A DNA stretch of 64,000 nucleotides from Candidatus Saliniplasma sp. (GCA_046497075.1 JAWOGF010000038.1:1306-65305), one strand, 5' to 3'. Positions 3,895-57,421 are shown, numbered from the stretch's first letter. The notes: a model not told the origin generated them from the letters alone. Translations and numbers: made by a program.

Positions 3895-3895
3895 A

Positions 3896-4552: not shown

Positions 4553-4562
4553 CTTCACTAAA

Positions 4563-6306: not shown

Positions 6307-6674
6307 CTATTTCTTCCTCCACCAAAATGGCCTTTCACAGTTTTTTCATCTAACTCTTCTAACTCTCCATCCTTTAGTTTATCCACTGCGTCCGATATTT
6401 TACCAGAAGCCTTGTACACCTTTATCCCGGCAGAATTCAATGTTTGGTGTGCATTTGGGCCAACGTTCGATGTTATTACTGCATCCACACCTTTTTCCGA
6501 AAGTGACTGGACCACCTGTGGACCAACGCCATGGGACTTATCCGTATGTTCATTTTCGATGGTTTTAAAATCCATCTCGTCGGTATCAACCATTATAAAA
6601 TAAGGGCATCTACCGAATCTGTCATCTATCTTTGATCCTTCACCCTGACCGCTTGCAGATATCGCTACCTTCAT
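6303..6674 (-). CDS. Dinitrogenase FeMo-cofactor biosynthesis (NifX-like) domain protein, paralog
   Basis: FGRCPYFIMVD motif; 123 aa; overlaps the previous gene by 4 bp. Confidence 0.75.
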   Translation of the reverse strand: MKVAISASGQGEGSKIDDRFGRCPYFIMVDTDEMDFKTIENEHTDKSHGVGPQVVQSLSEKGVDAVITSNVGPNAHQTLNSAGIKVYKASGKISDAVDKLKDGELEELDEKTVKGHFGGGRNR

Positions 6675-6854
6675 ATTTTTTCACCTATTTTTATCTTTTA
6701 CTATATGTCCAAATGGAATTGATATGGTTGAACTCCTGATTGATAAAAGAAAATGCTCTGAAGAGACCTGAACAAATTCCATCTCCTTCATATATATTAC
6801 ACAAATGTGAAGATTTATAAATAGTTTTTGCCACCCAAATAAGATTCGGCATAC

Positions 6855-6872
6855 AAAATGGTTTACCATTTT
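6855..6872. promoter_or_regulatory. 8-2-8 inverted repeat AAAATGGTttACCATTTT, a candidate operator in the divergent promoter region
   Basis: Perfect 8-bp arms read directly from the sequence. It lies about 70 bp upstream of the DtxR-family gene at 6944 and about 180 bp upstream of the NifX-like operon start at 6674. Confidence 0.3.
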
Positions 6873-6943
6873 TTACTGATGGTGAGTATGAATTATCAAA
6901 AACATCCGAAAGATTTTAGACTTGCCGAAAATATGACGGGTCT

Positions 6944-7381
6944 ATGCTTAGGAAAAGAGAAGAGGAGTATATCGAAGCTATCTATGATGTGGTAAAAGAT
7001 AAAGGATACGCCAAGGTAAAAGATATCGCCGAGAGTTTAGAAGTCGGTTTATCGTCTGTCACCGAGATGTTCCAGAAATTGGACAAAAAAGGATACATCG
7101 ATTACAAGAAATACAGTGGAGTGACCTTGACAGATAAAGGCGAAGAAAAATCTATAGAACTCTCAGAAAAGCATAAAGTCCTGAAGGATTTTTTTATTAT
7201 TTTAGGATTGGATGAAGAGATCGCAGATGATGACGCGTGTAAGATCGAACATGTGGCAAGAAGAGAGACCATAGAAAGGTTGACTAAATTCGTTGATTTC
7301 ATTCAAGATCAGAAAGAACCTAAATGGCTTGAGAACTTCAAAAATTATTATGAAAAAGGCGATTTTGAAGAAGGTCAGTGA
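6944..7381 (+). CDS. DtxR/MntR-family metal-dependent transcriptional repressor (no SH3 domain)
   Basis: N-terminal HTH (YAKVKDIAESLEVGLSSVTEM), dimerisation/metal-binding region, 145 aa. Confidence 0.8.
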   Translation: MLRKREEEYIEAIYDVVKDKGYAKVKDIAESLEVGLSSVTEMFQKLDKKGYIDYKKYSGVTLTDKGEEKSIELSEKHKVLKDFFIILGLDEEIADDDACKIEHVARRETIERLTKFVDFIQDQKEPKWLENFKNYYEKGDFEEGQ

Positions 7382-7668
7382 ACTTTTAATCGATAAAAGT
7401 ATAGATTAGCTTTTCATAAAAGTAATGATGGTTAGAAAAGGAAGGGGGGATAACCTGAAAGATATTTATGAAATAACTTTGACTAAAGAGATGGTTAGAA
7501 CCCTAGACCTCGCAAAAAGGTCTGCTGTATCCGCCCTATAGTTCCTAAAATCATCTGCACCCATTTTGATTAAATTCTTCAGATCTCAACTATACTTTCT
7601 ATATATATCACTAAATACAGTTTTTAAAAGCAAAGAGTTTTTACTCTACCTATCTTATCTTCATTTAC

Positions 7669-8622
7669 ATGCAAAATAGGATCGCCTACGGACCTGTCCC
7701 TTCGAGAAGATTGGGTCAGAGTTTAGGCATAAACAACATCCCACCAAAGATCTGCACGTATTCATGCATTTACTGTCAATTGGGTAGGACCCTCAATATC
7801 CAGGTAGAGAGGGGAGAATTCTACACCGTGGATAAGGTAGTTGAAAGTGTAAAAAAGAAGGTGGATAACGCAGTGATTAATGATGAAAACATCGATTATC
7901 TTACCTTCGTACCCGACGGTGAACCTACTTTAGACATCCATCTAGGTGAAGAAATTGAAGCGGTTAAAGAACATGGATACAAGATCGCTGTTATTTCAAA
8001 TGCTTCTTTGATAGGAGACGAAAAGGTTAGAGAAGAACTCTACAAAGCGGATTGGGTATCGTTGAAGATGGATGCGATATCATCTGAGGTCTGGAAGAGG
8101 GTGAACAGACCTCACAAAAATCTAGACCTAGATAGCATAGTTGAAGGTATCTATGAATTCGTTGATGATTATTCCGGTGAATTGAACACTGAAACGATGC
8201 TGTTGAAAGGTTTAAATGATGATACTGAGGAGTTGAAAAAGATAGCTGAGAAGATATCCAAGATAGGTGCGGACAAAAGCTATATCTCCATACCCACACG
8301 ACCACCTGCTGAAAACTGGGTGGAACCTGCCAGTGAGGAAAAGATAACGGAAACGTATCACATATTCAAAGAAACAGGGATAGACGTTGAATATATCATC
8401 GGCTATGAAGGAGACACATTCGCATCATCGGGAGATGTAAAAGAGGACCTTTTGAGCATAACCTCCGTTCATCCTATGAGAAAGAGACAGGTAGAAAAAT
8501 TGCTGTCGAAGTCCGATGACAACTGGAGTTCTGTATATGAGCTGATCGATGATAAAAAATTGATAGAAACAGAATTTAAAGGAGAAAAATTCTATATGAG
8601 AAAATTGGATTGTACGAAATAA
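7669..8622 (+). CDS. Radical SAM protein
   Basis: CTYSCIYC (CxxxCxxC) at residues ~30-37, preceded by GPVPSRRLGQSLGIN. Confidence 0.8.
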   Translation: MQNRIAYGPVPSRRLGQSLGINNIPPKICTYSCIYCQLGRTLNIQVERGEFYTVDKVVESVKKKVDNAVINDENIDYLTFVPDGEPTLDIHLGEEIEAVKEHGYKIAVISNASLIGDEKVREELYKADWVSLKMDAISSEVWKRVNRPHKNLDLDSIVEGIYEFVDDYSGELNTETMLLKGLNDDTEELKKIAEKISKIGADKSYISIPTRPPAENWVEPASEEKITETYHIFKETGIDVEYIIGYEGDTFASSGDVKEDLLSITSVHPMRKRQVEKLLSKSDDNWSSVYELIDDKKLIETEFKGEKFYMRKLDCTK

Positions 8623-41009: not shown

Positions 41010-42560
41010 ATGATGTTTGTAAAAATTAAAAACATTCTAGCAATTACCATGGTGATACTACTAGTTTCGAGTGTTCTGATCGTCAGTCTTGCCTCTTCAA
41101 CGAGTACCGAATCAGACCTAGAAGTTCAAAACGTTGACCCGGCCCGTAGACGTGTAGATTTCGGTACGTTCGAATACGGTGAGGATGAACTCGGTTTATA
41201 TATATCGATGGTTAAAGACAAGACACCGACATGGACATTCTATGGTGATGGTGAACTCTTAGAAAAGATCGAAACGGGTTATGTGGATTTTGACTGGAGC
41301 GACTATGGAGATTTCGATAAAAGAGAGTTCGTGGTGGAGATAGAAGAATACTCAGATGTTACAAAAATAGATTGGTCTTATAAAAGCCTAGTTGGGGATA
41401 TCCCCTCTGAACTGGGAAAACTCTCGAATCTAGAACGATTGTATCTTAGAGCTAATGATTTAGATGGAGGGATACCGTCAGAATTAGGTGATCTTAATAA
41501 CCTGGAATATCTAGACTTACGAGAAAACCAGTTGTCTGGAGAGATACCACCGGAGCTAGGGAGACTCTCGAACATAGAACGGTTTTATCTAACTGACAAC
41601 GGGCTATCTGGAGAGATACCACCAGAACTGGGAGATCTTTCGAACGTTAGAAGTTTCTATCTAGATTCCAACAGATTGGAGGGGAAGATACCGCCGGAAC
41701 TGGGAGATCTTTCGAATATTGAATACTTAGATCTGCGCTTTAATGAACTGTCAGGGAAGATACCACCAGAACTAGGACGGCTTTCAGACCTCCAATGGTT
41801 TAAATTATGCTCTAACCATCTCGTTGATGAGATACCACCAGAACTCGTTGGGCTCTCCAGCCTCGAATGGTTCCGTCTGAGTGATAACGAAATTTCTGGA
41901 GATATACCTAATTGGCTGGGAGAACTCTCAAAGCTTGAATGGATAGATTTGAACGGCAATGAGCTGTCGGGTGAGATCCCACATGAAATAGGTGACCTCG
42001 ATAAGCTTAAAAAGTTAGATCTAGGTTCCAACAGATTGTCTGGAGAGATACCGCCGGAACTGGGGGGCCTCTCAGATCTTAAATTGTTAAACCTAAATTC
42101 GAACGAGTTATCGGGAGAGATCCCTTCTGAACTGTCTAGTCTTACTGATCTAGAAAGGGTAGAACTGCAGGACAATAAATTTAATCATTACGGAATCGAC
42201 GCTTTTTCAACTCAACCGAACCTCGGTGATTATAAAGATGTTTTTGATGTTTTAAACATCTCAGAAAATGATCTATCATCCGAAGATATTGACAATATTT
42301 TATCCGATCTAGTCGAAAGTTTAAAACTAGAGGATAAAATTGAGGCTGAAGTATATCTAACCGGAAACTCTGTTCCTTCTTCCGATGGTATGGAAAATAA
42401 GCAGATCCTTGAAGAGGAAGGTTGGAACGTTGAGGTAGATGAAGAAGAAAAAGATGAGGTAGATGAAAAGGATGGTATACCAGGATTTACCCTACCTATC
42501 TTCCTAATCGTAGCAATCATCGTGACGGCAGTCCACCAAAAGAAGAGGGATAGACAATAG
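41010..42560 (+). CDS. Secreted leucine-rich-repeat protein (about 13 plant-type 24-aa LRRs) with a PGF-CTERM sorting tail
   Basis: LSGEIPPELGxLSNLExLxL repeats (72-bp DNA periodicity across 41400..42180); C-terminal PGFTLPIFLIVAIIVTAVHQKKRDRQ. Confidence 0.8.
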   Translation: MMFVKIKNILAITMVILLVSSVLIVSLASSTSTESDLEVQNVDPARRRVDFGTFEYGEDELGLYISMVKDKTPTWTFYGDGELLEKIETGYVDFDWSDYGDFDKREFVVEIEEYSDVTKIDWSYKSLVGDIPSELGKLSNLERLYLRANDLDGGIPSELGDLNNLEYLDLRENQLSGEIPPELGRLSNIERFYLTDNGLSGEIPPELGDLSNVRSFYLDSNRLEGKIPPELGDLSNIEYLDLRFNELSGKIPPELGRLSDLQWFKLCSNHLVDEIPPELVGLSSLEWFRLSDNEISGDIPNWLGELSKLEWIDLNGNELSGEIPHEIGDLDKLKKLDLGSNRLSGEIPPELGGLSDLKLLNLNSNELSGEIPSELSSLTDLERVELQDNKFNHYGIDAFSTQPNLGDYKDVFDVLNISENDLSSEDIDNILSDLVESLKLEDKIEAEVYLTGNSVPSSDGMENKQILEEEGWNVEVDEEEKDEVDEKDGIPGFTLPIFLIVAIIVTAVHQKKRDRQ

Positions 42561-44617: not shown

Positions 44618-45100
44618 TTAATTGTTTGACAGCTTTTCTCCCGGGCTAGAGCATTGATCAGATTCCATACAACTTTCGATAGCATCTTCCATTTCCTGCC
44701 TATACCCTTCGTCAAAACTTACCCAGTACTCATCACCGATGAAAGTAGTTGGAACACTGGCTATGGGCACATCGTAGATTTCGACCAGTTTTTGAAACAC
44801 CTTTCTGTCTTCGGTATTGCCATAGATATCAAACTTCTTCACTTCGATATCGTCATCTTCTTCCAATTCATCAATATATTGCCGTTGTTTCTCACAGATC
44901 GGGCAATCCTCGTCCCAAAACCAATATACCGTCACTTTATCTGGATCGTCTTCTATACCTGTTCCAATATCTTCATCATCCTCGGGTACACTAGACTGCA
45001 GGGTATAGATAACAGATCCGATGATAACGATCACGATTCCCAGTGCTAGGACATTTTTGATGATCTTTTTATCCATTATACTTGATTCACTTTTCTTCAT
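44618..45100 (-). CDS. Membrane-anchored thioredoxin-fold protein (CPIC active site)
   Basis: N-terminal TM anchor; WFWDEDCPICEKQ CxxC motif; acidic extracytoplasmic domain. Confidence 0.6.
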   Translation of the reverse strand: MKKSESSIMDKKIIKNVLALGIVIVIIGSVIYTLQSSVPEDDEDIGTGIEDDPDKVTVYWFWDEDCPICEKQRQYIDELEEDDDIEVKKFDIYGNTEDRKVFQKLVEIYDVPIASVPTTFIGDEYWVSFDEGYRQEMEDAIESCMESDQCSSPGEKLSNN

Positions 45101-47576
45101 CTACAGACTTCTCTCCCCTCTTAGTTTTCATCCAAGTTACAATCATGATCACGGTTAAGATAATGGCTATCAGTATCACAAACGTCGTTATATTGTTTTG
45201 CGTAGGTGAATCTTCGTCAGCGTCGGTCGCTTCGGTCAGGGGATAATCGTCTACAAACCCTTCTCCTCTATATGGGGTGACCCAGATATCTCCATCAGCG
45301 ACTTTTCCAGCATCCGGATATTCCTTATCGTAATCGGACCAGTAATTACCCCCGATGGGGTAACCATTATCCCATTGGTTATCGCCGTGATCTCTAGCCT
45401 GAACTAGATTTTTTATAAAGTTATTATGGTAAATAGTGTTGTCATTACTTCGAAGATCTAGTGATATACCTGGATTATTGTTGTAAAGGGTATTATTATT
45501 GATGAGATTTGATCGAGATGATCGGAGAGATATCCCCGCGTTGATATTAGAATTGGCTGTATTCTTTCCTAGGGCATTATTTTTGGAACTTGAAAGATGT
45601 ATTCCATGTTCTCCGTTCCTAGATGCAGTATTTTCCTTAATTATATTGTTATCTGAGTTTTTGAGTGAGATACCGCACCAATCGTTCCCTGAGACGTTGT
45701 TAGATGTTATGGTGTTTTTCGACGAAAAGCCGAGTTGTACACCGACCGATCCTTGACTAAGGTCTTGATCTTTTACTTTTATATTCTCACACCCGACCAA
45801 GATTATCTGACCCGCATCTGATGGAACACTTTGATTATGATTATCCGTCCAATAGTAGACCGGCCTGCCGTTAACTGTATTGGTTGTACTTATCGAATGT
45901 GAATCCCAGTACTCTAACAGGTCGCCCCAGATAATGATCCCGTTTTCGGTCATCTCATTTTCTTCTAAAGAGTGTTCTTTGGAGTCTGAAAATATTACCC
46001 CGCCCCAGTCGTTGTTAGATAGTGAGTTTTTTTCGACCGCATTTCCAGTTGAGTTGGAGAATGAGACCCCGTAGCCGAAGTTGTTTGTTATGGAGTTTTC
46101 TGCAAGATGATTTTTATTTGACTTTGAAAGATGTATCCCGTGGTACTCATTCTCCGTGATGATGTTATTTGAGACGGTGTTTTCATTTGACCCTTTAACG
46201 TGGATACCGTCTTCTAGGTTTTGTGAGACGGTGTTATCAATTACTGAGTTTTGGTTTGAGGACTCTAGTCGGATCCCATGACGGCTGTTCGAGTTGATAT
46301 CATTATCTAAGATATCGTTGTTTTGGGAATTGTATAGATAGATACCGTAAAGGCCGTTTGTTAATTCATTCCTTTCGATATCGTTGTTGGATGAAAACCC
46401 CATTAGGATCCCTGCAGAGCTACTACTGACTTCGAGATCTTCGACGACCATGTCTTTACAGTCGGCCAATATCACTTGTCCGGCATCAGATGGGACCGTA
46501 CCTCCTCTTTCGCTGTGGTAATAGTAAATGGGTTTTCCCTCAACAGAGTTATCCGTAGAGATCGTGTGGGTGTCCCAATGAGCTAATTTTTCACCTGTTA
46601 TGAACACTCCATTCCCTTCAAAGATATTATCTTCGATCAGCTGATTTTTAGAGTCTGATATGTAAACGCCATATTCATTATGTAAGAGTTCGTTGCTTGT
46701 AACATTATTTTCTTCTATCGAGCCCGCAAAACTGATACCATAATCGTTTTTTTCTGCAGTATTTTCTTCAACCAAATTAGAGTTCGATTCATAAAGCTGT
46801 ATACCTACAGTGTTGTTAAACCCGGTATTATATTTGATGATATTATCATAAGAATTTATTAGGCTTATACCGAAATCGTTTTTCTCTGCATAGTTATCAA
46901 CAACGTTGTTATCGCTACTGGAATCGTAAAGGTAGATGCCCCGGTAATTGTCCAAAAGTTGATTTTCTTCGATGTCGTTGTTGAAGGAGTTTTCGATACG
47001 GATCGAGTAGACACTGTTGTTCTGTAAGATATTGTTGGAAATCTCGGTGTTCTTCGAGTCTTTGAGCCAGATCCCCTTTTTTTCATGACGTTCCAGTATA
47101 TTATCAGTAATCATTCCATTCTCGACGTTGTTCAGGTATAGACCGGTGTTTGAAAAGTATGGCTTTTCCATTCCTGACGCGTTATATATATAACAATCTC
47201 TTACGACAAAGTGGTCTGACACATTGCCTATGTATATGCCATAGCCGTATCCCCCTGCATCTATATCATATCCTTCGATCATCCAGGGGTCGTCAATATA
47301 TCCACTCCCTGCCCAATCCTGTTCTACAAAATCCTGGTCGTTATCTATCCGTATAGGCCCATGTTCGATGTAATCATCAGATGTAAGTTGTTCTACATGG
47401 GTAGAAAGATGAACTTTTTCTTCGACCCCGTCATCATGATCGATAGCCATACCCGAAATAAGTAAGATAAGACATACGGTAGCCCATACTATTATCTTAT
47501 TTTTAATCTTCACCATATATTGCACACCATACCCCGATAAAAAATTTCGGTATATATAGTTTATGTATCTATACAA
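45087..47576 (-). CDS. Large secreted right-handed parallel beta-helix repeat protein (NosD/CASH-like; two repeat blocks) with a C-terminal TM anchor
   Basis: Signal peptide; more than 25 iterations of NNxIxxNxxxGIxLxxSxxN 22-aa units; C-terminal TFVILIAIILTVIMIVTW anchor. Confidence 0.8.
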   Translation of the reverse strand: MYRYINYIYRNFLSGYGVQYMVKIKNKIIVWATVCLILLISGMAIDHDDGVEEKVHLSTHVEQLTSDDYIEHGPIRIDNDQDFVEQDWAGSGYIDDPWMIEGYDIDAGGYGYGIYIGNVSDHFVVRDCYIYNASGMEKPYFSNTGLYLNNVENGMITDNILERHEKKGIWLKDSKNTEISNNILQNNSVYSIRIENSFNNDIEENQLLDNYRGIYLYDSSSDNNVVDNYAEKNDFGISLINSYDNIIKYNTGFNNTVGIQLYESNSNLVEENTAEKNDYGISFAGSIEENNVTSNELLHNEYGVYISDSKNQLIEDNIFEGNGVFITGEKLAHWDTHTISTDNSVEGKPIYYYHSERGGTVPSDAGQVILADCKDMVVEDLEVSSSSAGILMGFSSNNDIERNELTNGLYGIYLYNSQNNDILDNDINSNSRHGIRLESSNQNSVIDNTVSQNLEDGIHVKGSNENTVSNNIITENEYHGIHLSKSNKNHLAENSITNNFGYGVSFSNSTGNAVEKNSLSNNDWGGVIFSDSKEHSLEENEMTENGIIIWGDLLEYWDSHSISTTNTVNGRPVYYWTDNHNQSVPSDAGQIILVGCENIKVKDQDLSQGSVGVQLGFSSKNTITSNNVSGNDWCGISLKNSDNNIIKENTASRNGEHGIHLSSSKNNALGKNTANSNINAGISLRSSRSNLINNNTLYNNNPGISLDLRSNDNTIYHNNFIKNLVQARDHGDNQWDNGYPIGGNYWSDYDKEYPDAGKVADGDIWVTPYRGEGFVDDYPLTEATDADEDSPTQNNITTFVILIAIILTVIMIVTWMKTKRGEKSVDEEK

Positions 47577-47680
47577 CCATATATATTTAAAGAAAAGACT
47601 CTAGACACCTAAGAAATCCTAAGAAATTTTTCTAGAAAAATATATATACTATCCTTAATTTACACCGCTCGGGATTGAAC

Positions 47681-48166
47681 ATGGAAAAAGGGACAATAAA
47701 GGTGACAACCTGCATAGTGATTTCCTTGATCATGATAGCTGGATTTTCTATCATGTTTGAAAGCACTGCAGAGGGTCCGGAAGGATATGAGGCTGAAGGA
47801 GAGGACGACATCTACACTACATTCGTCGAGAAAGATGCTGTAGAGGAGGAAGAGCCCACTTCGTACAACCTTACGGAAGGAGAGTTAGAAGAGATCGAGG
47901 AACTGATGGTAGAAGCATTGGGATTAGAAGACGGTCCGAAGCTCGAGTCGGAGATCGACCTCATGGAATGGTTCGCCGAGATGGACGAGGATGACTGGAG
48001 CGATCTGACCGAGTACACGAGCGAGACAGATGATGACACGGGATGCGGATCAGCTGGGTACGATGGCAGAGACGGACCGAGAGAGCGAGGGGAAGAAGAG
48101 CTGATGAGTCCCCCGCCGATGCAACCCAACGGCGGCGGTACATACGAGCCTGGCACCACACTCTGA
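47681..48166 (+). CDS. Membrane-anchored hyper-acidic protein ending in the EELMSPPPMQPNGGG leader-like motif (founder gene of the Cys-rich-peptide cassette)
   Basis: ATG at 47681 (the track's 47675 is a TTG). One N-terminal TM helix, then a domain that is more than 35% Asp/Glu. The C-terminus carries repeat copy R1 and stops 8 codons later. Confidence 0.55.
   Translation: MEKGTIKVTTCIVISLIMIAGFSIMFESTAEGPEGYEAEGEDDIYTTFVEKDAVEEEEPTSYNLTEGELEEIEELMVEALGLEDGPKLESEIDLMEWFAEMDEDDWSDLTEYTSETDDDTGCGSAGYDGRDGPRERGEEELMSPPPMQPNGGGTYEPGTTL
48095..48139. repeat. Repeat R1 (~45 bp) encoding EELMSPPPMQPNGGG
   Basis: gaagagctgatgagtcccccgccgatgcaacccaacggcggcggt. Near-identical copies occur at 48214..48252 and 48909..48957. 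Confidence 0.85.
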
Positions 48167-48211: not shown

Positions 48212-48586
48212 ATGGTGAGTTCGCCGCCGATGCAACCCAACGGCGGCGGTGGCTGGAGTGACACTTGTCCATACGGAGTATATTTAACTTACGATGAATG
48301 TTTACAAAATAATGGATGGGATGAGGAATATTGTTCTTGTGTCTGTGATTACAGCGGCAGTTGTGGCGGCCTATGTGAATTAACTGATGAATATTGGGAT
48401 TGTGTAGATGAACAAACAAGCCATCCTGTTTATTATGCGAGTATAATTATAGGTTGTGGAGTTGGTTGTATAGTGACAGATCCTGGATGGCCGTTATGTG
48501 TTAAAGGATGCATAATAGGTGCTTCTGTTGCACCGGTAGCCGTGTACACAGGCTGTTTATTTGTTGAAGGTGCTTATGAATGTTAA
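48212..48586 (+). CDS. Cysteine-rich peptide A precursor. It has an MVSSPPMQPNGGGG leader-like N-terminus and a 110-aa core with 17 Cys and a hydrophobic Gly/Cys-rich C-terminal half.
   Basis: Carries repeat R2 at its 5' end. The core begins WSDTCPYG...DEC, paralogous to peptide B. It is in the same frame as the upstream gene, separated from it by two in-frame stops. Confidence 0.55.
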   Translation: MVSSPPMQPNGGGGWSDTCPYGVYLTYDECLQNNGWDEEYCSCVCDYSGSCGGLCELTDEYWDCVDEQTSHPVYYASIIIGCGVGCIVTDPGWPLCVKGCIIGASVAPVAVYTGCLFVEGAYEC

Positions 48587-48792
48587 AACTTGAACGACAT
48601 ATACAAAAACTAATAGTGTCTTTTATAATATCCATACACCATATTAGCTTGTATATTCTAGTTAGAATTGATGTATTATCTATGCCTAGAAACTGGAGAT
48701 ATACCTTTCTACCTTTATATGTTGGTTTTACTGTAATCGCCATTATTACGTTCTATCAGGGAATCTCAGGATTCAATCAAAAAGACATATAA
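48580..48792 (+). CDS. 2-TM microprotein (70 aa), putative cognate immunity/partner protein of peptide A
   Basis: Its ATG overlaps the peptide A stop (gaATGTTAAaa), indicating translational coupling. It has two hydrophobic helices. Confidence 0.5.
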   Translation: MLKLERHIQKLIVSFIISIHHISLYILVRIDVLSMPRNWRYTFLPLYVGFTVIAIITFYQGISGFNQKDI

Positions 48793-48818: not shown

Positions 48819-49166
48819 GTGTCCAGTGTATTTAGTATGAGCAGATACACATACGTGCAGAAAACTCCGACGGATGACAAATGCATGCAAGATGAGTTAG
48901 ATGAGATCGAAGAGCTGATGAGTTCGCCACCGATGCAACCCAACGGCGGCGGTGGTGGTAGTGTAGGCGACACTTGCCCTGATGAATGGAGTTACGATAG
49001 CTGGGATGAGTGTAGGTGGTACCATGATGTTGATACATGTGCAGACCTTTGTTTTGGTGAGTATGAAGAAGCTGGTATGAGTTGTGAGGCCAAAGTAGGC
49101 CTTCTTTGTGCAGATGTACGTATGCGCAAAACGAAGTATGTGGATAATATAGGATGTGTGGTGTGA
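48819..49166 (+). CDS. Cysteine-rich peptide B precursor (GTG start). It has a 47-aa acidic leader ending DELDEIEELMSSPPMQPNGGGGG and a 68-aa core with 9 Cys.
   Basis: GAGGTGA RBS 7 nt upstream. Carries repeat R3. The core SVGDTCPDEWSYDSWDECRWYHDVDTC aligns with peptide A (DTCP...DEC...C). Confidence 0.55.
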   Translation: MSSVFSMSRYTYVQKTPTDDKCMQDELDEIEELMSSPPMQPNGGGGGSVGDTCPDEWSYDSWDECRWYHDVDTCADLCFGEYEEAGMSCEAKVGLLCADVRMRKTKYVDNIGCVV

Positions 49167-49167
49167 T

Positions 49168-49362
49168 ATGAAGATATCAAAAAGAACAAAGTTTCTTGCG
49201 ATATTTATATTTGGTTGGAATATAGGTATTTTTATTGCCTCATCGATATCCCACCGAGATTTACATTTTCCACTATCAATGATGATTGGTGGAACCATTG
49301 GCGCTGTGATAATGTATATATTAGGTGTAGATAAAATGATAAAAAAACATAAAAATGATTGA
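49168..49362 (+). CDS. 2-TM microprotein (64 aa), putative immunity/partner protein of peptide B
   Basis: Its ATG lies 1 nt after the peptide B TGA. Basic N-terminus plus two TM helices (FLAIFIFGWNIGIFIASSI, LSMMIGGTIGAVIMYILGV). Confidence 0.5.
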   Translation: MKISKRTKFLAIFIFGWNIGIFIASSISHRDLHFPLSMMIGGTIGAVIMYILGVDKMIKKHKND

Positions 49363-49399
49363 TATACAGATTTTAAAAACAATGATATAAAAATAATAT

Positions 49400-49960
49400 A
49401 AATGAAGCATCTGATAGAAAGTGAAGTCGTTAATACCGTGCAGAACGAATATGATGATGAGAACATGCTGTAAGGTCTGATGATAAAACTTACAGCTACG
49501 ACAAAATAAGAAGAACATGCTCACCGATCATCCTATAAGCATCGAAGTGAACGGTACAAAATATTAGTACTTATACAATTGCCAAGGCAGCGTTACTGAA
49601 CTGATCAACTCAGATGAAGAAGTAGTCAATCAATACAGATACACCCCATTCGGCAGTCCCAGATTGAAAGTAGAAAGCGTGTACAACCCATATCAGTACA
49701 CCGGAAGAAGATTGGACGAGGAATCCTGTCAGTACTACCACCGAGCTAGGATGTACTCGCCTACGGAGAACGAGTTCATCAGCAGCGATTTTTCGGGATT
49801 CTTATGGACTCCCAGTAGATCCCATGGGATTAGAAGAGGGACCGAACATGTACACTTACGCAGGGAACGATCTGGCGAATCACAGGGATCCAAGCGGGTG
49901 TATGTATGTTTCCTTGAACTTGAGCTGTTCTGTCAAATCTCCGATATCACTAAATTCTTG
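49400..49960 (+). pseudogene. Decayed RHS/YD-repeat C-terminal core fragment (frameshifted, multiple stops)
   Basis: Frame 1 gives NPYQYTGRRLDEESCQYYHRARMYSPTENEFISSD (compare YRYTGRxxDxETGLYYYRARYYDPxxGRFISxD). After a frameshift it continues SYGLPVDPMGLEEGPNMYTYAGNDLANHRDPSG, the DPxGL...NxYxYxxNxPxxxxDPxG Rhs core end. Upstream are YD-like remnants (VVNTVQNEYDDENML) interrupted by stops. There is no N-terminal Rhs body. Confidence 0.55.
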
Positions 49961-50014
49961 AAAGTTGACAGACTCCATAAAACGAAAACATAAACTATAA
50001 TTGTTATTTGTATT

Positions 50015-50734
50015 ATGGAGGTGAGCATGTCTGAAACAGACGTATCACCATCTTTGATGATATTGGAAGTGATCGGCGTTACCATCATGGCCTTGCTCCT
50101 ATCTTTGGCGATGGGTGTCGTTTTTATCGTGTCATTGGTTGTGTTGGGATATGGAGTCGATTCAACTTTCGCACTCGGCGGCGCTACAGTTTTTGGTCAA
50201 GTGGGATTCCTGATAGTAGCATATATCTACATACGTCGTCGGAAAGTGACTGTCCCATTTGAGGCACCATCTCGATCAGATCTGTTTCACATCGGAGGAG
50301 GGATAGTTATCGCGCTGGCTACTGCAATTGGATTTTCCCAGTTGCTGTTATACTTCGATCTTATGCCGGAATCCGTTCTCGAAGAGATCGCTGAGACCAG
50401 TCCGATATTTTTGATAGTTCTAGCGATACTGTCTGTAGTACTAATTGCCCCGGCTGAGGAGCTTTTATTCAGAGGGGCCATCCAAGGCAAACTCCGTGAA
50501 CATTTTACTCCAATCCCTGCGATCACAACTGCAAGCCTTTTATTTGGTTCCCTCCATTTTCTCAACTACGGTGGAGATATCCTTCCAATAATACTGTCGA
50601 CATTACTTATCGTCGTCATCGGTGGGATAATGGGTTGGTTGTATGAACGTACGAACAACATCGTGGTTCCGATCCTGGTTCACGGGATATACAATTTCGT
50701 ATTACTGGTGCCCAACTATTTTGAGATGGTATAG
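50015..50734 (+). CDS. CPBP-family intramembrane metalloprotease (CAAX protease / Abi self-immunity family)
   Basis: EELLFRG, FGSLHF and HGIYN motifs in the correct order; 6-7 TM helices. Confidence 0.8.
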   Translation: MEVSMSETDVSPSLMILEVIGVTIMALLLSLAMGVVFIVSLVVLGYGVDSTFALGGATVFGQVGFLIVAYIYIRRRKVTVPFEAPSRSDLFHIGGGIVIALATAIGFSQLLLYFDLMPESVLEEIAETSPIFLIVLAILSVVLIAPAEELLFRGAIQGKLREHFTPIPAITTASLLFGSLHFLNYGGDILPIILSTLLIVVIGGIMGWLYERTNNIVVPILVHGIYNFVLLVPNYFEMV

Positions 50735-50834
50735 GTGTAAATACAGAAAGGAATTTACAGATAAGTATTCAGGTGGTTCACAAAATCAATAAATATACGA
50801 TAATCATCTTTCGTTCTAGAGGTTAGAGAGGAAT

Positions 50835-52310
50835 ATGGATGGAAAAACCCTTGCAGATTTTGCTGTAGAGTATGGTCAATCTTTAGAGGCTGATTATGTA
50901 GAAGCTAGGTTCGTAACCTCCATGAACGAGAACTATTTTGCTAGGAATGGTAAGTTTTTAAGTATTCAGGAAAAACCCATCAGAGGGTTAGGTATAAGGG
51001 TTCTTGTGGACGGATGTGTCGGTTTCGGATCTGTGGATGTTTTGACCAAAGATGAGGTCAAAGATAGGATCGAATCGATCTCTAAGATGGCAGGACTTAG
51101 TAAAAGAGAAATACCTATCGAATTTTCAAAAGAGAAAACAGTTCAAGACAATTGGATCGCCCCGGTTGAAGTTCCTTTCGAGGATATATCTAGGGAAGAG
51201 AAACAAGATTATGTAAAACGTTTAGATAAAAGGGTCAAAGAAGCAGGTTCTAAAAAATTTTCGTTCAGGAACAGGATAAAGAACAGGATATTCTTCCTCC
51301 ACACAAACTCCATGGATAAGTACATAGTCAACTCGGAGGGTTCTAAAATAAAATCCGACGAATCGTTCATATCACTATTTACTATACTTAACGCGAAGGT
51401 CAAAGATTCTAGTGAGCAGAGGATGTTAGGTTTAGGTGGAAGTGCGGGATGGGAATGGCTCAAAGAGGAAAACGTGCATGACTTAGTAGGCAGGGAAAGT
51501 GAAAAACTTGTCAAAACCGTAGAAAATGCCCAGAATATCCCTTTCAACGAAGATATTGACGTGGTAGTGGGACCCGAAGTCTCCGGGATAATGGCACATG
51601 AGAATGTAGGACATCCCAGTGAGGGCGATAGGATAATCGGTCGAGAAGAGGCACAGGCGGGAGGATCATTTTACGATGAATTTTTTGGTATCGATAACAA
51701 AGATCCAGTAGATCTAAACCAGTCTGAGATCAAATTGGGAAGCGAAGATGTGTCAGTCATAGACGATCCTACTATCGATCAAAGTCCGGGTTTCTATATC
51801 TACGACGACGAATGCGTCGAAGCCCGAAGTAGATACCTGATCAAGAACGGGCGGTTGAACGAACTCCTTCTTAACCGTGAGTTCGCTTCTAGATTCGGTA
51901 CCCGTTCCAACGGTGCTGCTCGTTCCTCCTCATATAGTAGAGAACCCATTCCAAGGATGTCGAACACTTTCTTTGAACCCGGAGACCACACTAAAGAAGA
52001 GCTAGTAGAAGATATCGAAAAGGGTCTGCTTATCGAGAGTTTCACCGAGTGGAACATAGATGATAGACGGTACCACAGTAAATACGTAGGATTGGAAGCA
52101 TATCTAATACGGAACGGAGAGGTCACTGACCAGATGGTCAAGCGCCCCGCACTAGAACTTACAACTCCAGCACTCCTAAAAAGCATAGAGGGTGTTTCAA
52201 AAGACTACGAATCCAGGATGAACTTCTGCGGTAAGAGCGATCCCATGCAGCCGGTGAGCGTTTCCACTGGGGGACCTTATCTGAGGATCAGAAACGTGAG
52301 GGTGGGGTGA
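50835..52310 (+). CDS. tldD: TldD-family metalloprotease (peptidase U62)
   Basis: HENVGHPSEGD (HExxxH...E) zinc site; ~490 aa. Confidence 0.8.
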   Translation: MDGKTLADFAVEYGQSLEADYVEARFVTSMNENYFARNGKFLSIQEKPIRGLGIRVLVDGCVGFGSVDVLTKDEVKDRIESISKMAGLSKREIPIEFSKEKTVQDNWIAPVEVPFEDISREEKQDYVKRLDKRVKEAGSKKFSFRNRIKNRIFFLHTNSMDKYIVNSEGSKIKSDESFISLFTILNAKVKDSSEQRMLGLGGSAGWEWLKEENVHDLVGRESEKLVKTVENAQNIPFNEDIDVVVGPEVSGIMAHENVGHPSEGDRIIGREEAQAGGSFYDEFFGIDNKDPVDLNQSEIKLGSEDVSVIDDPTIDQSPGFYIYDDECVEARSRYLIKNGRLNELLLNREFASRFGTRSNGAARSSSYSREPIPRMSNTFFEPGDHTKEELVEDIEKGLLIESFTEWNIDDRRYHSKYVGLEAYLIRNGEVTDQMVKRPALELTTPALLKSIEGVSKDYESRMNFCGKSDPMQPVSVSTGGPYLRIRNVRVG

Positions 52311-53770
52311 TAGTTATGGTAGGAGAAATTTTTGATGAGGAATTGTTGCAGGTCGGAGTTGAAACCGCTTTGAAGGCGGGAGCCGATGAAGCCATAGTTA
52401 AACTGGTAGATCAGAAAAAACATCAGATCAGATTTTCAAATTCTTCTATCGATGTGAATAAAGAATGGAGCAGTTACTACATAGATGTATTATTCACTAA
52501 AAAACCACGCCTTTCTCTAACGGGAAAGATCAACACACTCACAATCCAGGACCCGGATCCAGAGAAAATAAGAAAGAACGTTCCAAAACACGTCAGTCTT
52601 CTGGATCATTTACCGAAGAACAAGCTATACTGGGGTATGGACGATCGATCTTATAGCTCTTATCGTTCTTTGAATATATATGATGATAGGGTAGAGGGTT
52701 TTCATGAAAAAGGGCCAGATCTAGTAAGGAAGACTATCGATTCAGCTCTACAGAGTGGAGCTGACGGTGTTTCAGGTGTACTGCACTCAGCAGCTACCAA
52801 GACCGGTGTTCTAACCAGTTATGGGAACGGAGGAACGTACAGGTCTTCTTTTTGTCGAGGAACTGTCAGGGCATTTCATCGAGAGGGCGGTAGTGGACAA
52901 GGTTTGATAGTAGCTAGAGATCTTTCTGGCATAGATGAAAGGTTTCGAAAAGGTGGTGGGAAAGCAGGGAGATTGGCCAAGAAGAGTGCAGGGGCTGAAG
53001 AGGGAAAACCTGGGACTTATGATGTGATAATGGCTCCGACCGTAGGTGCTAATATCTTTGGTAATCTTCTCAATGGGACCAATCCTATAATGATGATAGC
53101 CGGTATGAGCCCTCTTAAAGGTAAGATGAACGACAAGATCGGCCCTGAAAATTTGACTGTTATCGAAGACCCCATTTTAGATGAAGGACTGAACAGCAGA
53201 CCATTCGACGATGAGGGCACTCCTTCAGAAAAAACTGAACTCATCAGAGATGGAGAACTCACCGGATTGATCCATAACACTTCTACAGCTAAATTATGGA
53301 AGTTTATAAGTATGCTAAAACTCAGATTCTGGAGAAGGCCAAAGACTACATCGAACTCAAGCTTAACACAACTTGGGATGACCGGTACAGAAGAGGATCC
53401 TAGAACACTTATGCCGACTCCTTCAAACTATCGATTCACCCCTGGATCATACAGCTTGGATGAACTCATCTCGACCTCTTCCAGACCGACGATTTTACTT
53501 ACGTCCAACTGGTATACCAGGTTCACCAATATGAGCGAGGGAGAGTTCTCTACTGTTCCTAGAGACGCTGTATTTTTAGTTCAAAATGGAGAGATAAAGA
53601 AACCGATAAGGAATCTTCGGTTGAAAGGCAACCTTTTAGAGATGTTAAAAAATATAGAGGGGATAGGGAAGGGATCGAAGCAGATCCGATGGTGGGAAGT
53701 CAACACACCCACTTTCATCCCACATATCAAGATAAAGCACTGTAAGTTCACCAAGGCTAAAGCAAGATAG
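52307..53770 (+). CDS. pmbA: PmbA/TldE-family protein (TldD partner)
   Basis: U62-family fold without HExxxH; 4-bp overlap with tldD. Confidence 0.75.
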   Translation: MIVMVGEIFDEELLQVGVETALKAGADEAIVKLVDQKKHQIRFSNSSIDVNKEWSSYYIDVLFTKKPRLSLTGKINTLTIQDPDPEKIRKNVPKHVSLLDHLPKNKLYWGMDDRSYSSYRSLNIYDDRVEGFHEKGPDLVRKTIDSALQSGADGVSGVLHSAATKTGVLTSYGNGGTYRSSFCRGTVRAFHREGGSGQGLIVARDLSGIDERFRKGGGKAGRLAKKSAGAEEGKPGTYDVIMAPTVGANIFGNLLNGTNPIMMIAGMSPLKGKMNDKIGPENLTVIEDPILDEGLNSRPFDDEGTPSEKTELIRDGELTGLIHNTSTAKLWKFISMLKLRFWRRPKTTSNSSLTQLGMTGTEEDPRTLMPTPSNYRFTPGSYSLDELISTSSRPTILLTSNWYTRFTNMSEGEFSTVPRDAVFLVQNGEIKKPIRNLRLKGNLLEMLKNIEGIGKGSKQIRWWEVNTPTFIPHIKIKHCKFTKAKAR

Positions 53771-53805
53771 ATGATATTTTAGGACGAGGTGAGGCATTTA
53801 TTCTA

Positions 53806-56754
53806 TCAATCGAATCTCAACGCTTCCGCCGGTGAGACCTTACTAGCCTTATGGGCACTCGGTATAGCGGTTAGCAGCATAGCGACATATGCTATCACAC
53901 CTATCGTCAAGATCGAAATCCACGGTATGGAGAATTCCCAGCCCATAGGTTTGAACCCGTCGTACCACAGCAGCCATCCGATAGCTATACCCAAGCTAGA
54001 ACCCAACACTATACCAACAATAGTTATGAAAGAGTTCTCTATCAAGAAGGCGTACCTGATCATCTTCCTTTTGAACCCGATAGCTCTCATCATACCGATC
54101 TCCAACCGCCGTTCGTGTACCGCCCTTAAACTAATAATACCCAAACCAGCGATCCCAACAACTAGACCTAGCCCCATATAACCTGAAAACAGGTCGAAGA
54201 ACATGTAGGTAGCACTCATAGCATCTCTGATGATCGTTTCGATGACTACGGTCCTGAACCCGTACTGGATGAACTCTCTGTTAAGATCACGGCCAAGCTC
54301 ATCGGCATCTACGTTCTCTTCAACGCTGAAGAAAAATAGAGAGTTAGAAGTGATATTGAATTCATTTCTTACAGTTCCTTTGGACATGAAATACCCGCTG
54401 ATCGCATTTTGGTCCATGAAGCCAACGACTTTTTTTTCACGTACTTCATCTTCATGGTCGATGAACTTAACAGTCGATCCCAACTCGATAGTCTCGCCTC
54501 CCGGCGGTCCGTATTGATCAGAGGGGGCGTTTGTTATGACCAGCGAGGAATTCGACAAAACAGCATCCCATACTTCATCGTTGGACTCATATTCATCGAG
54601 ATAGTCAGAGAACCCAAATGTATTATTGCCAACGAAATTATCATCTATACCTATAGCGGATTTCCTACCTATCTCACCATCATTATCTCTCATACGTATA
54701 TTACCGCGGTAAGCCGAGTCGATATGGTTAAAATCCTCAATATCTAAGTTTTCATTGTTAATTATCTCGCTGTGCATGTCATCGATATATTTATCCTGAC
54801 CTGTCATACCCATGATCTCATACCCGCCGGATTCTTCTTCGATCATCCTATCTATGTTAGTATCGAAGATACCGACGATCATCCCCATGACTGTTATTGC
54901 GAAGATGATCAGAGCGAAGATGAAGATAGTCATACCGGTTCTGAACTTCTCTTTTAATGGGTGGGAAATGGCTGATAGAACTACCGCTTTGAAGCCAGTA
55001 TCCGACCTGCACAACCTTTCCATCCCACCTGTTAATAGATGACCGTTCAGCATTACTATGAGTACTCCTGCGGTTACCATGAATAGACCAGAAAGTATGA
55101 ACATCTCTAATCCAGAGGTGTATCCCTCGAAGAATTCTAATGTGTCCAGTGGAACGAGCCACCAGACCAGCAAGAACACCCCTACACCAGTATAAGCGGC
55201 TCTATCTCCCACCCATCTTCTAGCGACCGTTCCGATACCGATTATTATGAGAGAAATGCCAGTTACGGGTAACCAAAACTGATCCACACCTGTTCCCATT
55301 ATCGTTAAAAGAACTCCAAGGATCAACCCCGCGATGGCCATGTAAAAGACCTTTTTGTTTTTCTTAGATACGGGTGGTTCAGGTATATCTCTGATAGCTC
55401 TAACGATATTCAATTTAGATATCCGGGTAACTGAAAAGAATATCGTGCCCATTGTCAACAAAAATCCGGCAGCGAAGGCCAATATCATGCTTTCTGGGGT
55501 GAAAGTAAAATATCCAAGGAGCGATACATCCCCGCCGAATGTAGCGAATATATCTTCGAGTAAGAAGAATATAACATAAGTTAAACCAGCACCGACAAAA
55601 ACACCTACGAAGGAGGCCGCACCAGCATATATCATACCTTCGTAAGAGAATACCCTACGAAGGTGTCCTCTTTTCATACCTATCGCCCTGCTCATACCCA
55701 TCTCGGATTTCCTCTCCTCCCCCAGCATAACGAATATGTTAACCGCTAAGATGATACCGGCGATTATAGAGAAGGTACCAAAAATTAAGAAAATATCAGT
55801 GAACTGCGATATGTTATCTTTAAAATCCTGCAGTACCTGGTTCTTGTTCCCTTTAGCCTCTAATACGTTATACTCGGGATCTTCCTGCAGAAGATTCTCG
55901 ATATCCTCAAATATCTGATCGCTGTATTCAATACCGCTTTCTACACCACCTATAGAAGTGACTCTGATGTAGTTTACTTGATTTGGAAGGCTGAAGGCCG
56001 TTTGAGCATCAGATAAAGACATGATGATCTTATTGCTTCCACGGAAAGCCGCTCTTCCCTCGTTATCGATCACCTCTTTTACTGTATAGGTCATATCGTT
56101 TACTCCATTACCCCCCTCCTCCTGAGATTCTACTGTAAACAATAGTAACTCATCACCTTTCTCAGCCTCTAATTCTTCTGCTAATCGTGTATCTATAAAT
56201 ATCTCTTTTTCTCCAAGCTCAGGTTCGAAACTCTCACCATCTTTGTAAAAACGTCCAAAAGCCTCACCGTCATCAAGATCCATCCCGATAACACGGGTAC
56301 TCGGTTGAGACAGTCTTGCATCTGGATTTAATACCGGTAGAGAGCCGTGAACTTCACCACTCACTTCATCTACATTATCGATATCAGATATATCTGAACT
56401 GAGATTTTTATAAGTGCTGTGCTGTATAGGAACATAATTTCCCTCTACTGTTGTATTGTATACGGTTACGTCCGTCTGCTGCCACTCGCTGTAGATCTCA
56501 TCCTCAACCATATTGTCCATGGTATCTCCGACACCGAAAGAAGATGAAATGATAGCAGTGGCAATCATCAATCCTAAAATCACTATGACTGTATTGGTCT
56601 TCCTGCGGAATATGTTCCTACATCCGATCCTAAATAGAATTTTATGTCTATAAGCATCGAAAAGGACTATACCAACAACTACTGCGATGATACCCAGTAG
56701 AAGGACGATCATGCCTTCACCCCTCCTTAATCTGGTCCCGCTGGACAACTCCAC
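53806..56754 (-). CDS. ABC transporter permease with two FtsX-like modules (MacB/FtsX family, 982 aa, large extracytoplasmic domains)
   Basis: Two repeats of a TM-large loop-3TM architecture; located downstream of a MacB/LolD-type ATPase with a 38-bp overlap. Confidence 0.8.
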   Translation of the reverse strand: MELSSGTRLRRGEGMIVLLLGIIAVVVGIVLFDAYRHKILFRIGCRNIFRRKTNTVIVILGLMIATAIISSSFGVGDTMDNMVEDEIYSEWQQTDVTVYNTTVEGNYVPIQHSTYKNLSSDISDIDNVDEVSGEVHGSLPVLNPDARLSQPSTRVIGMDLDDGEAFGRFYKDGESFEPELGEKEIFIDTRLAEELEAEKGDELLLFTVESQEEGGNGVNDMTYTVKEVIDNEGRAAFRGSNKIIMSLSDAQTAFSLPNQVNYIRVTSIGGVESGIEYSDQIFEDIENLLQEDPEYNVLEAKGNKNQVLQDFKDNISQFTDIFLIFGTFSIIAGIILAVNIFVMLGEERKSEMGMSRAIGMKRGHLRRVFSYEGMIYAGAASFVGVFVGAGLTYVIFFLLEDIFATFGGDVSLLGYFTFTPESMILAFAAGFLLTMGTIFFSVTRISKLNIVRAIRDIPEPPVSKKNKKVFYMAIAGLILGVLLTIMGTGVDQFWLPVTGISLIIIGIGTVARRWVGDRAAYTGVGVFLLVWWLVPLDTLEFFEGYTSGLEMFILSGLFMVTAGVLIVMLNGHLLTGGMERLCRSDTGFKAVVLSAISHPLKEKFRTGMTIFIFALIIFAITVMGMIVGIFDTNIDRMIEEESGGYEIMGMTGQDKYIDDMHSEIINNENLDIEDFNHIDSAYRGNIRMRDNDGEIGRKSAIGIDDNFVGNNTFGFSDYLDEYESNDEVWDAVLSNSSLVITNAPSDQYGPPGGETIELGSTVKFIDHEDEVREKKVVGFMDQNAISGYFMSKGTVRNEFNITSNSLFFFSVEENVDADELGRDLNREFIQYGFRTVVIETIIRDAMSATYMFFDLFSGYMGLGLVVGIAGLGIISLRAVHERRLEIGMMRAIGFKRKMIRYAFLIENSFITIVGIVLGSSLGIAIGWLLWYDGFKPMGWEFSIPWISILTIGVIAYVAMLLTAIPSAHKASKVSPAEALRFD

Positions 56755-57421
56755 TTTCCATGTGAAGTACCCTTTCTGCCCTATCAGCTACTCTGTTCTC
56801 ATGGGTCACTAGGACCATAGTATGTCCGTTTTTATCGTTCAAGTCGCAGAGTATGTCCATGATCTTATCCGAAGTTTCAGTGTCGAGGTCACCGGTGGGT
56901 TCATCGGCCCAGATCATATCAGGCTCGTTGACTATGGCTCTAGCGATGGTTACACGCTGTCTTTCCCCTCCTGATAATGCTGAAGGTCTGTGAGTATATC
57001 TATGCCCTAAACCCACCATATCCAGGGCTTTTTCCGCTTTTTCTCTAGCACCTTTTGATTTTCCCGCTAGAAGTAAAGGCAGCTCGACATTTTCCACAGC
57101 TGAAAGTACTGGTAATAAATTATAGAATTGGAAGACAAAGCCCATGTTCATAGCCCTCATCTCGGTCTTTTCATTATCAGATAGTGAACTGAGATCCTTT
57201 CCTTTCAACCATACTTTGCCTTTGGATATATCATCAAGACCGGATAAGCAGTTCAACAATGTAGTCTTCCCACATCCAGAAGGCCCCATAATAGCGACCA
57301 TCTCACCTTTTTTGATAGAAAGGTCGACACCACGTAAAGCGTGGACCTTCACTTTTCCTTCATAGAACTTGTGTAATTTCTTTGATCTTATCATTCCGGT
57401 CTTCATAGTCTCCGCTTCCAT
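56717..57421 (-). CDS. ABC transporter ATP-binding protein (MacB/LolD-type)
   Basis: GPSGCGKTT, LSGGERQRVTIARA, IWADEPTGDLD. Confidence 0.9.
   Translation of the reverse strand: MEAETMKTGMIRSKKLHKFYEGKVKVHALRGVDLSIKKGEMVAIMGPSGCGKTTLLNCLSGLDDISKGKVWLKGKDLSSLSDNEKTEMRAMNMGFVFQFYNLLPVLSAVENVELPLLLAGKSKGAREKAEKALDMVGLGHRYTHRPSALSGGERQRVTIARAIVNEPDMIWADEPTGDLDTETSDKIMDILCDLNDKNGHTMVLVTHENRVADRAERVLHMESGVVQRDQIKEG

Follow-up and report, generated by a model that had tools for sequence, protein, structure and literature searches.

A probable orphan rhs-CT cassette without its tip in a toxin/immunity graveyard of Candidatus Saliniplasma, a halophilic member of the Thermoplasmata

The stretch of 64,000 nucleotides (nt) analyzed here, called the window in the following, belongs to a metagenome-assembled genome (MAG) of Candidatus Saliniplasma sp. 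(GCA_046497075.1 JAWOGF010000038.1:1306-65305). Its positions 49402-49961 on the + strand hold the remains of an Rhs protein C-terminus. Very probably this segment is a pseudogenised orphan rhs-CT cassette which has lost its toxin tip by deletion and which lies in a graveyard of toxin and immunity genes. A preliminary description, made from the sequence alone, had recognized the diagnostic end of an Rhs core across a frameshift, and all peptides quoted there were recovered in place in a six-frame translation of 49300-50020. The remnant consists of the following parts:

49402-49961, + strand: Rhs cassette remnant overall, the C-terminal part of an Rhs protein spread over three frames
49402-49470, + strand, frame 0: 5' end with the YD-repeat vestige MKHLIESEVVNTVQNEYDDENML, then TAA (DNA alignment to cassettes, blastn to L004-L007)
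49473-49505, + strand, frame 2: RSDDKTYSYDK with a YD motif (alignment and column mapping to intact cassettes)
49514-49564, + strand, frame 1: NMLTDHPISIEVNGTKY, then TAG at 49565-49567
49568-49789, + strand, frame 1: YLYNCQGSVTELINSDEEVVNQYRYTPFGSPRLKVESVYNPYQYTGRRLDEESCQYYHRARMYSPTENEFISSD
49514-49789, + strand, frame 1: Rhs-associated core segment TDHPISIEVNGTKY, stop, YLYNCQGSV...YRYTPFG...NPYQYTGRR...RMYSPTENEFISSD (TIGR03696 40.0 bits, tblastn 73%)
49800-49898, + strand, frame 2: SYGLPVDPMGLEEGPNMYTYAGNDLANHRDPSG
49818-49898, + strand, frame 2: aspartyl-protease cleavage region DPMGL-(18 aa)-DPSG (TIGR03696 model positions 48-75, motif according to PMC8636562; aa, amino acids)
Stop at 49959-49961, + strand, frame 2: TGA which ends the twenty residues CMYVSLNLSCSVKSPISLNS after the cleavage region
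49899-49922, + strand: linker vestige CMYVSLNL, matching CMSVP(P/I)NLINGGGG of the Rhs proteins of Ca. Saliniplasma halalkaliphilum (L019, L022)
49923-49961, + strand: 12-codon tail SCSVKSPISLNS plus TGA, without a toxin domain and without a match in relatives

For profile searches the reading frames were repaired, which gave a peptide of 173 aa. This peptide matched the NCBIfam model TIGR03696 (Rhs_assc_core) over model positions 1-75 of 76 with 65.4 bits and an E value of 4.9e-18, against a curated cut-off of 32.5 bits. The match spans the frameshift junction, on which the preliminary description had staked its claim. Individually, the frame-1 piece scored 40.0 bits and the frame-2 piece 25.2 bits. 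In a tblastn comparison with an intact archaeal Rhs protein of 1802 aa, positions 49517-49816 showed 73% identity (E 2e-39), and the nucleotide identity of the remnant to approximately 20 intact cassettes was 77-82% (blastn). Thus, the similarity lies far beyond chance.

Pfam-A gave no match on the remnant even at E <= 1, so that only NCBIfam recognizes it; PF05593 (RHS_repeat), which the preliminary description had also named, and NCBIfam YD_repeat were likewise without a match. The upstream vestiges described earlier as stop-riddled YD repeats are present as peptides, and their YD nature follows from homology to the YD sequence of intact relatives (49400/49421-49504 against the cassettes of L004-L007, E 1e-13 to 5e-18, blastn), but not from any hidden Markov model (HMM). 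A tblastn search with the full 1802-aa Rhs protein against the whole window matched only residues 1424-1678, at the remnant, which bears out the earlier statement that the window is devoid of an Rhs shell. Searches for Rfam families and tRNAs in the window found nothing. Instead of the uninterrupted open reading frame (ORF), N-terminal trafficking region and YD shell of a functional Rhs protein, three changes of frame and the stop codons TAA and TAG were observed. The single frameshift assumed earlier therefore has to be replaced by at least three frame changes and a nonsense codon.

The cleavage region had been called intact. This is correct for the aspartates of both DPxG motifs, which are kept 18 residues apart, but in place of the boundary motif PxxxxDPxGL the remnant reads LxxxxDPSGC (NDLANHRDPSGC), and shortly before the first DPxGL the sequence is interrupted by a 31-nt insertion with a frameshift. 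The cysteine in place of the final leucine also occurs in the intact congeners L019 and L022. Behind the second DPxG motif no toxin domain follows; eight linker residues remain, and everything after them matches nothing. The blastn alignment to L019 stops at 49923. Since homology ends inside the linker, the tip was apparently removed by a deletion within it. The earlier observation that about 20 residues follow without a toxin tip accordingly holds for this cassette, but not for the neighborhood, where the ORFs first described as peptides are homologues of Rhs-type tips (see below).

DNA alignment and column mapping against three intact cassettes yielded the following map of lesions:

After 49469, + strand: 1-nt deletion, which creates the TAA
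After 49503, + strand: 298-nt deletion, by which about 100 codons including a CSSCGGCG stretch are gone
49565-49567, + strand: nonsense codon, TAT changed to TAG (TAT/TAC in relatives)
49782-49812, + strand: 31-nt insertion GCAGCGATTTTTCGGGATTCTTATGGACTCC, a frameshift just before DPMGL, which no intact relative has
After 49922, + strand, inside the linker: homology lost, tip deleted

The region affected by the 298-nt deletion comprises about 100 codons in the intact P0003 and L004 cassettes. Conserved residues are degraded as well: NGQG became NCQG, ETGQYY became ESCQYY, YYYRARMY became YYHRARMY, and the proline of PxxxxDPxGL was replaced by leucine. With five lesions including the loss of the tip, the remnant is non-functional, as had been proposed. 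The fragment itself most likely has no function; a residual role as a recombination substrate is unlikely, since 298 nt and the tip are gone and no partner gene lies within 64 kb.

L079 (from ENA) and L081 (from soda-lake sediment, JGI), two independent metagenome contigs of other samples, allow the decay to be dated relative to the divergence of lineages. Both are 94.9% identical to window positions 49113-49503 and show the same cassette start directly after a homologue of the ORF W68 (introduced below), and the same 1-nt deletion. They continue for 35 nt beyond the point of the 298-nt deletion of the window and then break into unrelated sequence. A search of metagenomes for an intact orthologue of the cassette with a degenerate pattern of 33 nt returned only L081, which is broken like L079. 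Because the 1-nt deletion is common to L079 and L081 and the break points differ, the cassette was inactivated already in a common ancestor of the window and L079/L081 lineages and was eroded independently afterwards.

The assignment of the host to the archaea was confirmed, as three ORFs of the window are identical or nearly identical to the proteins P0004, P0009 (= W124) and P0013 (= W163) encoded on a 68,920-bp contig of the Candidatus Saliniplasma sp. MAG. Candidatus Saliniplasma belongs to the order Candidatus Halarchaeoplasmatales in the class Thermoplasmata. The surrounding genes resemble those of an archaeal chromosome (archaeal-type phosphoenolpyruvate carboxylase, HFX_2341/Csa3-like regulator, NosD and PKD/GLUG surface proteins). 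Nearest to the remnant are Rhs C-termini of Thermoplasmata MAGs with 52-81% identity. A scan with one genome per species yielded 399 relatives, of which the best 25 were all Thermoplasmatota with 44-100% identity to the query, from soda-lake and hypersaline samples; among them were Ca. Saliniplasma halalkaliphilum, Ca. Haladaptatiplasma, Ca. Halarchaeoplasma and a Methanomassiliicoccales MAG. Rhs proteins of this clade are common among the archaea of this lineage.

Complete systems of this kind are found on contig CAYWJQ010000006.1 of an uncultured member of the Thermoplasmata, which contains the loci L004 (1-20696) and L005 (1-16316). L004 carries the intact 1802-aa Rhs protein (2634-8042) with an N-terminal Sec signal peptide, 12 YD-repeat HMM stretches and the TIGR03696 core. 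Directly after this gene follows an ORF of 61 aa with two transmembrane (TM) segments. Downstream of the full-length Rhs, L004 and L005 contain at least eight orphan rhs-CT cassettes of 383-417 aa. Each of them starts near "...DGxVVNTVxNEYDEENRLISSNDKTYSYDKDGNQ" and comprises the core up to DPSGL, an "xxIDGGGG" linker and a differing Cys-rich tip, followed by small membrane ORFs. This layout corresponds to the classical arrangement of a main gene plus orphans in a large archaeal Rhs array.

Upstream of the remnant, on the same strand, the window contains an island of tip and immunity-like ORFs:

47675-48166, + strand: W163, 163 aa, with an N-terminal hydrophobic segment, an acidic handle and the linker ...EELMSPPPMQPNGGG; stops 8 codons after the linker
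48212-48586, + strand: W124, 124 aa, with the linker SSPPMQPNGGGG, a 4-Cys module and the complete Cys-rich hydrophobic tip A; homologous to the L004 Rhs tip
48580-48792, + strand: W70, small two-TM protein, putative tip A immunity; homologous to the 61-aa ORF after the L004 tip
48819-49166, + strand: W115, with a short handle, linker, 4-Cys module and truncated tip B (alignment to the L079 orthologue)
49156-49362, + strand: W68, small two-TM protein, putative tip B immunity; intact, about 95% nucleotide identity to L079 and L081

W163 is an acidic carrier or handle with 46 aspartate and glutamate residues in 163 aa. W163 and W124 share one frame and are split by a repeat-bounded segment of 111 nt with two stops. 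As the W163 homologues P0014-P0016 and P0021 hold handle, linker and full tip in a single ORF, W163/W124 looks like a head gene of the island that has been disrupted. In the tblastn search, residues 1672-1802 of the L004 Rhs protein, which form its tip, matched W124, 1.2 kb upstream of the remnant; W124 is 38% identical to this P0006/L004 tip over 127-134 aa (E 6e-29 and 4e-16). W70 matches the 61-aa ORF of L004 in a pairwise comparison (E 1e-8); thus the pair of tip A and immunity ORF co-occurs in L004. Compared with its L079 orthologue (86-95% identical), W115 lacks 106 nt, by which the hydrophobic halocin-C8-like domain was lost and the frame shifted. The intact orthologue (L079:2-514) scored 24.8 bits with TIGR04449 halocin_C8_dom (curated cut-off 24 bits) and E 7e-13 with NF040679. 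W115 itself gave no match to TIGR04449 because this part of the domain is deleted. At 48819-49362 the toxin W115 thus seems to have been lost while the putative immunity gene W68 was kept. A TIGR04449 score above the cut-off (25.3 bits) was also obtained for the Rhs tip of L011.

The three ORFs which had been described as peptides share a 48-nt repeat encoding ...ELMSSPPMQPNGGGG. Its counterpart at motif level in the archaeal Rhs proteins is the linker behind DPxG, (W)GPPxLINGGGG / xxIDGGGG. Whether borne by Rhs proteins or not (L003-L031; window 48250-48350 and 48960-49060), all tips have a (P)PxxxNGGGG linker and a module of approximately 30 aa with four invariant cysteines, CPxxxYxxxxxC...CxxxC, and then a variable hydrophobic Cys/Gly-rich region. 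The 4-Cys module, which is not recognized by any Pfam or NCBIfam model, may be an undescribed pre-toxin module. The upstream ORFs belong to the same pool of polymorphic-toxin tips as the Rhs proteins. All toxin modules of the island are either disarmed or detached: a tip is missing from W163, W124 has been severed from its carrier and the halocin-like domain of W115 is gone. Both immunity-like genes, W70 and W68, are intact and encode two hydrophobic segments each. The graveyard of toxin and immunity genes suspected earlier is therefore well described by this term.

A 32-nt direct repeat (47909-47940 / 49815-49846, 81% identical) links VEALGLEDGPK of W163 with DPMGLEEGPN of the Rhs remnant. 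This repeat and the resemblance at motif level prompted the idea that the acidic W163-type handle is a diverged Rhs core end. It found no support: HMMs specific to the clade gave 0.4 and 4.8 bits, scores also reached among 500 shuffles (maximum 8.4). A second cassette locus of this MAG lies on a contig of 42,944 bp with at least four acidic-handle/tip ORFs, P0011, P0012, P0017 and P0019 (R6W73_02955-02975), of which P0017 begins with the Rhs-like EGEVVDKVWNEY. The architecture of acidic handle and tip was also met in P0020 (GenBank R6V04_05485) from a MAG labelled "bacterium". The shared part is 90% identical to W163, so that this contig is probably a mis-binned archaeal one.

Several other explanations of the remnant were weighed. 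It is hardly credible that frameshifts and stop are errors of sequencing or assembly in a gene which is really intact. The source is indeed a MAG, and single-base indels are common errors, but a 298-nt deletion, a 31-nt insertion and the loss of the whole tip are not of this type, and even with all frames repaired only about 170 aa are left. The recurrence of the 1-nt deletion in the independent assemblies L079 and L081 makes an assembly error unlikely. Just as little can be said for expression of an ORF of 109 aa in a new role, for instance as a decoy or regulator. Such an ORF exists (49664-49993, P0004) and is annotated in GenBank as "RHS repeat-associated core domain-containing protein". 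However, only its first approximately 42 codons (to about 49789) read Rhs, the rest being the DPxGL region out of frame, and the whole part is gone from L079 and L081, so that the ORF is not conserved. A stump of a full-length rhs gene which once stood here, lost its N-terminal part and shell and never was a stored orphan would account for the YD-repeat sequence kept upstream of the core and for the lack of a partner rhs gene for recombination. We consider this origin unlikely. The homology of the window to cassettes begins at 49400-49423, at "EVVNTVQNEYD", and the cassettes of L004/L005 start approximately 0-60 codons upstream of the corresponding "DGxVVNTVxNEYDEENRL". The identical boundary directly adjoins the W68 immunity ORF in L079 and L081, and a tip/immunity array on the same strand ends with the fragment, as is normal for an orphan (PMC3150448). 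As its 5' boundary coincides with orphan-cassette starts in a related array, an orphan cassette is preferred over a stump.

The preliminary description had also suggested past horizontal acquisition, and a bacterial Rhs fragment decaying after recent transfer into the archaeon has some points in its favor: Rhs systems are mostly bacterial, a bacterial origin has been argued for those of archaea (PMC3482391), and the bacterial homologues share the soda-lake and hypersaline habitats. Nevertheless, recent transfer is highly improbable. The 25 best genome matches, all Thermoplasmatota, are distributed over several candidate genera, whereas the best bacterial locus (Planctomycetota) reaches 39% identity. 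The high nucleotide identity given above is to archaeal cassettes, the linker vestige matches the Rhs proteins of the congeneric S. halalkaliphilum, and the G+C content of the remnant (0.435) is unremarkable compared to that of the window (0.414 +/- 0.034). A descent of archaeal Rhs systems from bacteria in the distant past, for which PMC3482391 argues, is possible.

Some observations also speak against the orphan cassette. An orphan is expected to follow a full-length rhs gene whose core is homologous to its own, but tblastn found no such gene in the 64 kb searched, so that no partner gene is visible. The argument from the 5' boundary draws on one related array together with L079 and L081. 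Moreover, because the local head gene W163 is not Rhs, a cassette with an Rhs handle is somewhat out of place here. The W124 tip family is not detectably similar to halocin C8: single-sequence HMMs gave no match, and an hhalign comparison of its profile with the halocin-like tips gave a probability of 0.2. The AlphaFold2 model of W124 (alignment of 14 sequences) was too poor for classification, with a predicted local distance difference test score of 54.6 and a predicted template modelling score of 0.30. Finally, toxicity, cleavage, secretion and immunity are ascribed to the system by analogy.

From the homology, the lesions and the shared ancestry of one of them, the cassette arrays of relatives, the joint occurrence of tips with immunity-like ORFs and the matches of some tips to the halocin-C8 HMM, a mechanism may be proposed in which secretion, cleavage, toxicity, immunity and recombination are adopted from the knowledge on Rhs and Tc proteins (PMC8636562, PMC3150448, PMC3482391). 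In relatives of the same order, an Rhs protein of about 1800 aa with a Sec signal would form a YD-repeat shell enclosing the tip. The C-terminal aspartyl protease would cut after DPxG and free the (P)PxxxNGGGG linker with the conserved 4-Cys module and the variable Cys-rich hydrophobic tip, which in some cases is halocin-C8-like. The freed tip might then act on a neighboring cell, the adjacent small two-TM protein protecting the producer. Silent downstream cassettes could replace the expressed tip via recombination through the shared core handle. The cassette of the window would represent such a 3' "homology handle", made up of the last YD repeats, the core, the autoproteolytic DPxGL...DPxG site and the start of the linker. 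It closes a short array whose first gene encodes a non-Rhs acidic carrier, with no partner rhs in the 64 kb. Intact immunity-like genes beside disarmed toxin modules are the pattern to be expected if toxins were lost and protection against the toxins of neighbors was kept.

Both types of handle occur in one array. This might reflect a change of the delivery scaffold in this Saliniplasma lineage, by which a shared pool of tips moved from the Rhs cage to a short acidic carrier; we regard this as a speculative and rather doubtful extension. If true, Rhs polymorphic toxins and halocin-type archaeocins would draw on a common exchangeable payload, and the dead Rhs handle would be a fossil of the scaffold switch.

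Directly downstream of the remnant lies one further gene which was considered as a partner:

50015-50734, + strand: CPBP/Rce1-like intramembrane protease (PF02517, 76 bits)

A role of this protease as cognate immunity gene found no support from its distribution, as it was not met again beside the cassettes of 37 related archaeal loci. It is possibly an immunity-type gene or simply the flank of the island. The region 50015-57421 comprises this protease, a TldD/PmbA pair and a MacB-type ABC exporter (minus strand), a combination with a flavor of peptide processing and export which was not seen beside cassettes in other loci. Surface proteins of the NosD/right-handed beta-helix type are found beside or inside Rhs arrays on three unrelated Thermoplasmata contigs (window 45087-47576, minus strand; L004 12835-14736; L001 1310-6322). 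As such proteins are common, this adjacency could be coincidence; it could also be a functional link. A few kb upstream of the island a leucine-rich-repeat protein of 516 aa is encoded at 41010-42560 (LRR_1 126 bits, LRR_8 110 bits), and the HFX_2341/Csa3-like regulator comes after this gene.

The fragment alone does nothing, and its value is that of a marker. It marks extensive Rhs-type polymorphic toxin systems and arrays of orphan cassettes in halophilic Thermoplasmata (Halarchaeoplasmatales), the payloads of which are Cys-rich and include halocin-C8-like domains. It further indicates that the toxin parts can erode while small putative membrane immunity genes persist. The few archaea for which classical Rhs systems are known are thereby joined by a further lineage, and candidate pairs of tip and immunity protein are offered for antagonism of archaeon versus archaeon in soda-lake and hypersaline communities.

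Orphan rhs-CT/rhsI modules are known from the bacteria Dickeya, Yersinia and Salmonella (PMC3150448, PMC7043789), where a main rhs gene with downstream orphans is the usual layout (PMC3150448). Like these, the fragment of the window is a 5'-truncated core kept as a handle upstream of DPxGL and lies at the tail of a tip/immunity array on one strand; in-frame stops in the kept core have been reported for bacterial orphans, too. In contrast, its host is an archaeon, its tip is lost, no cognate immunity gene is identifiable, and in the window a non-Rhs acidic carrier takes the place of a main rhs gene as head of the array. The aspartyl autoprotease plug at the C-terminus of Rhs/TcC proteins was described for Photorhabdus Rhs1 and Tc toxins together with the boundary motif PxxxxDPxGL (PMC8636562). 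As in these proteins, two DPxG(L) motifs stand approximately 17-18 residues apart at the boundary of shell and toxin, with both aspartates kept in the remnant. Here, however, the domain is split by the frameshift and the 31-nt insertion, the proline of the motif is lost, and there is neither a shell to fold into nor a toxin to release.

A halocin C8 domain fused to RHS/YD repeats is reported for Nitrolancea hollandica (Makarova et al. 2019, cited after bioRxiv 10.64898/2026.07.27.741052). As in halocin C8 of Natrinema and in the RHS-halocin C8 fusions, TIGR04449 is the C-terminal payload in the tip of L011 and in the W115 orthologue of L079. Unlike halocin C8, the remnant itself is tip-less, the W124 tip family has no detectable halocin C8 similarity, and an Rhs shell or short acidic protein, not a HalI-containing ProC8 precursor, serves as the carrier. 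An archaeal RHS polymorphic toxin with cassettes was noted once before, in Methanosarcina acetivorans (Zhang et al. 2012, PMC3482391), and L004/L005 show exactly this layout of an RHS stalk or shell with downstream toxin/immunity cassettes. The systems compared differ in the lineage, which is Halarchaeoplasmatales (Thermoplasmata), in the Cys-rich tips with a GGGG linker and, for the window, in that the copy is a dead fragment. As archaeal Rhs cassettes and fusions of halocin C8 and RHS have already been reported, this is not a new system. New is a dead example in a lineage which has not been highlighted for Rhs before.

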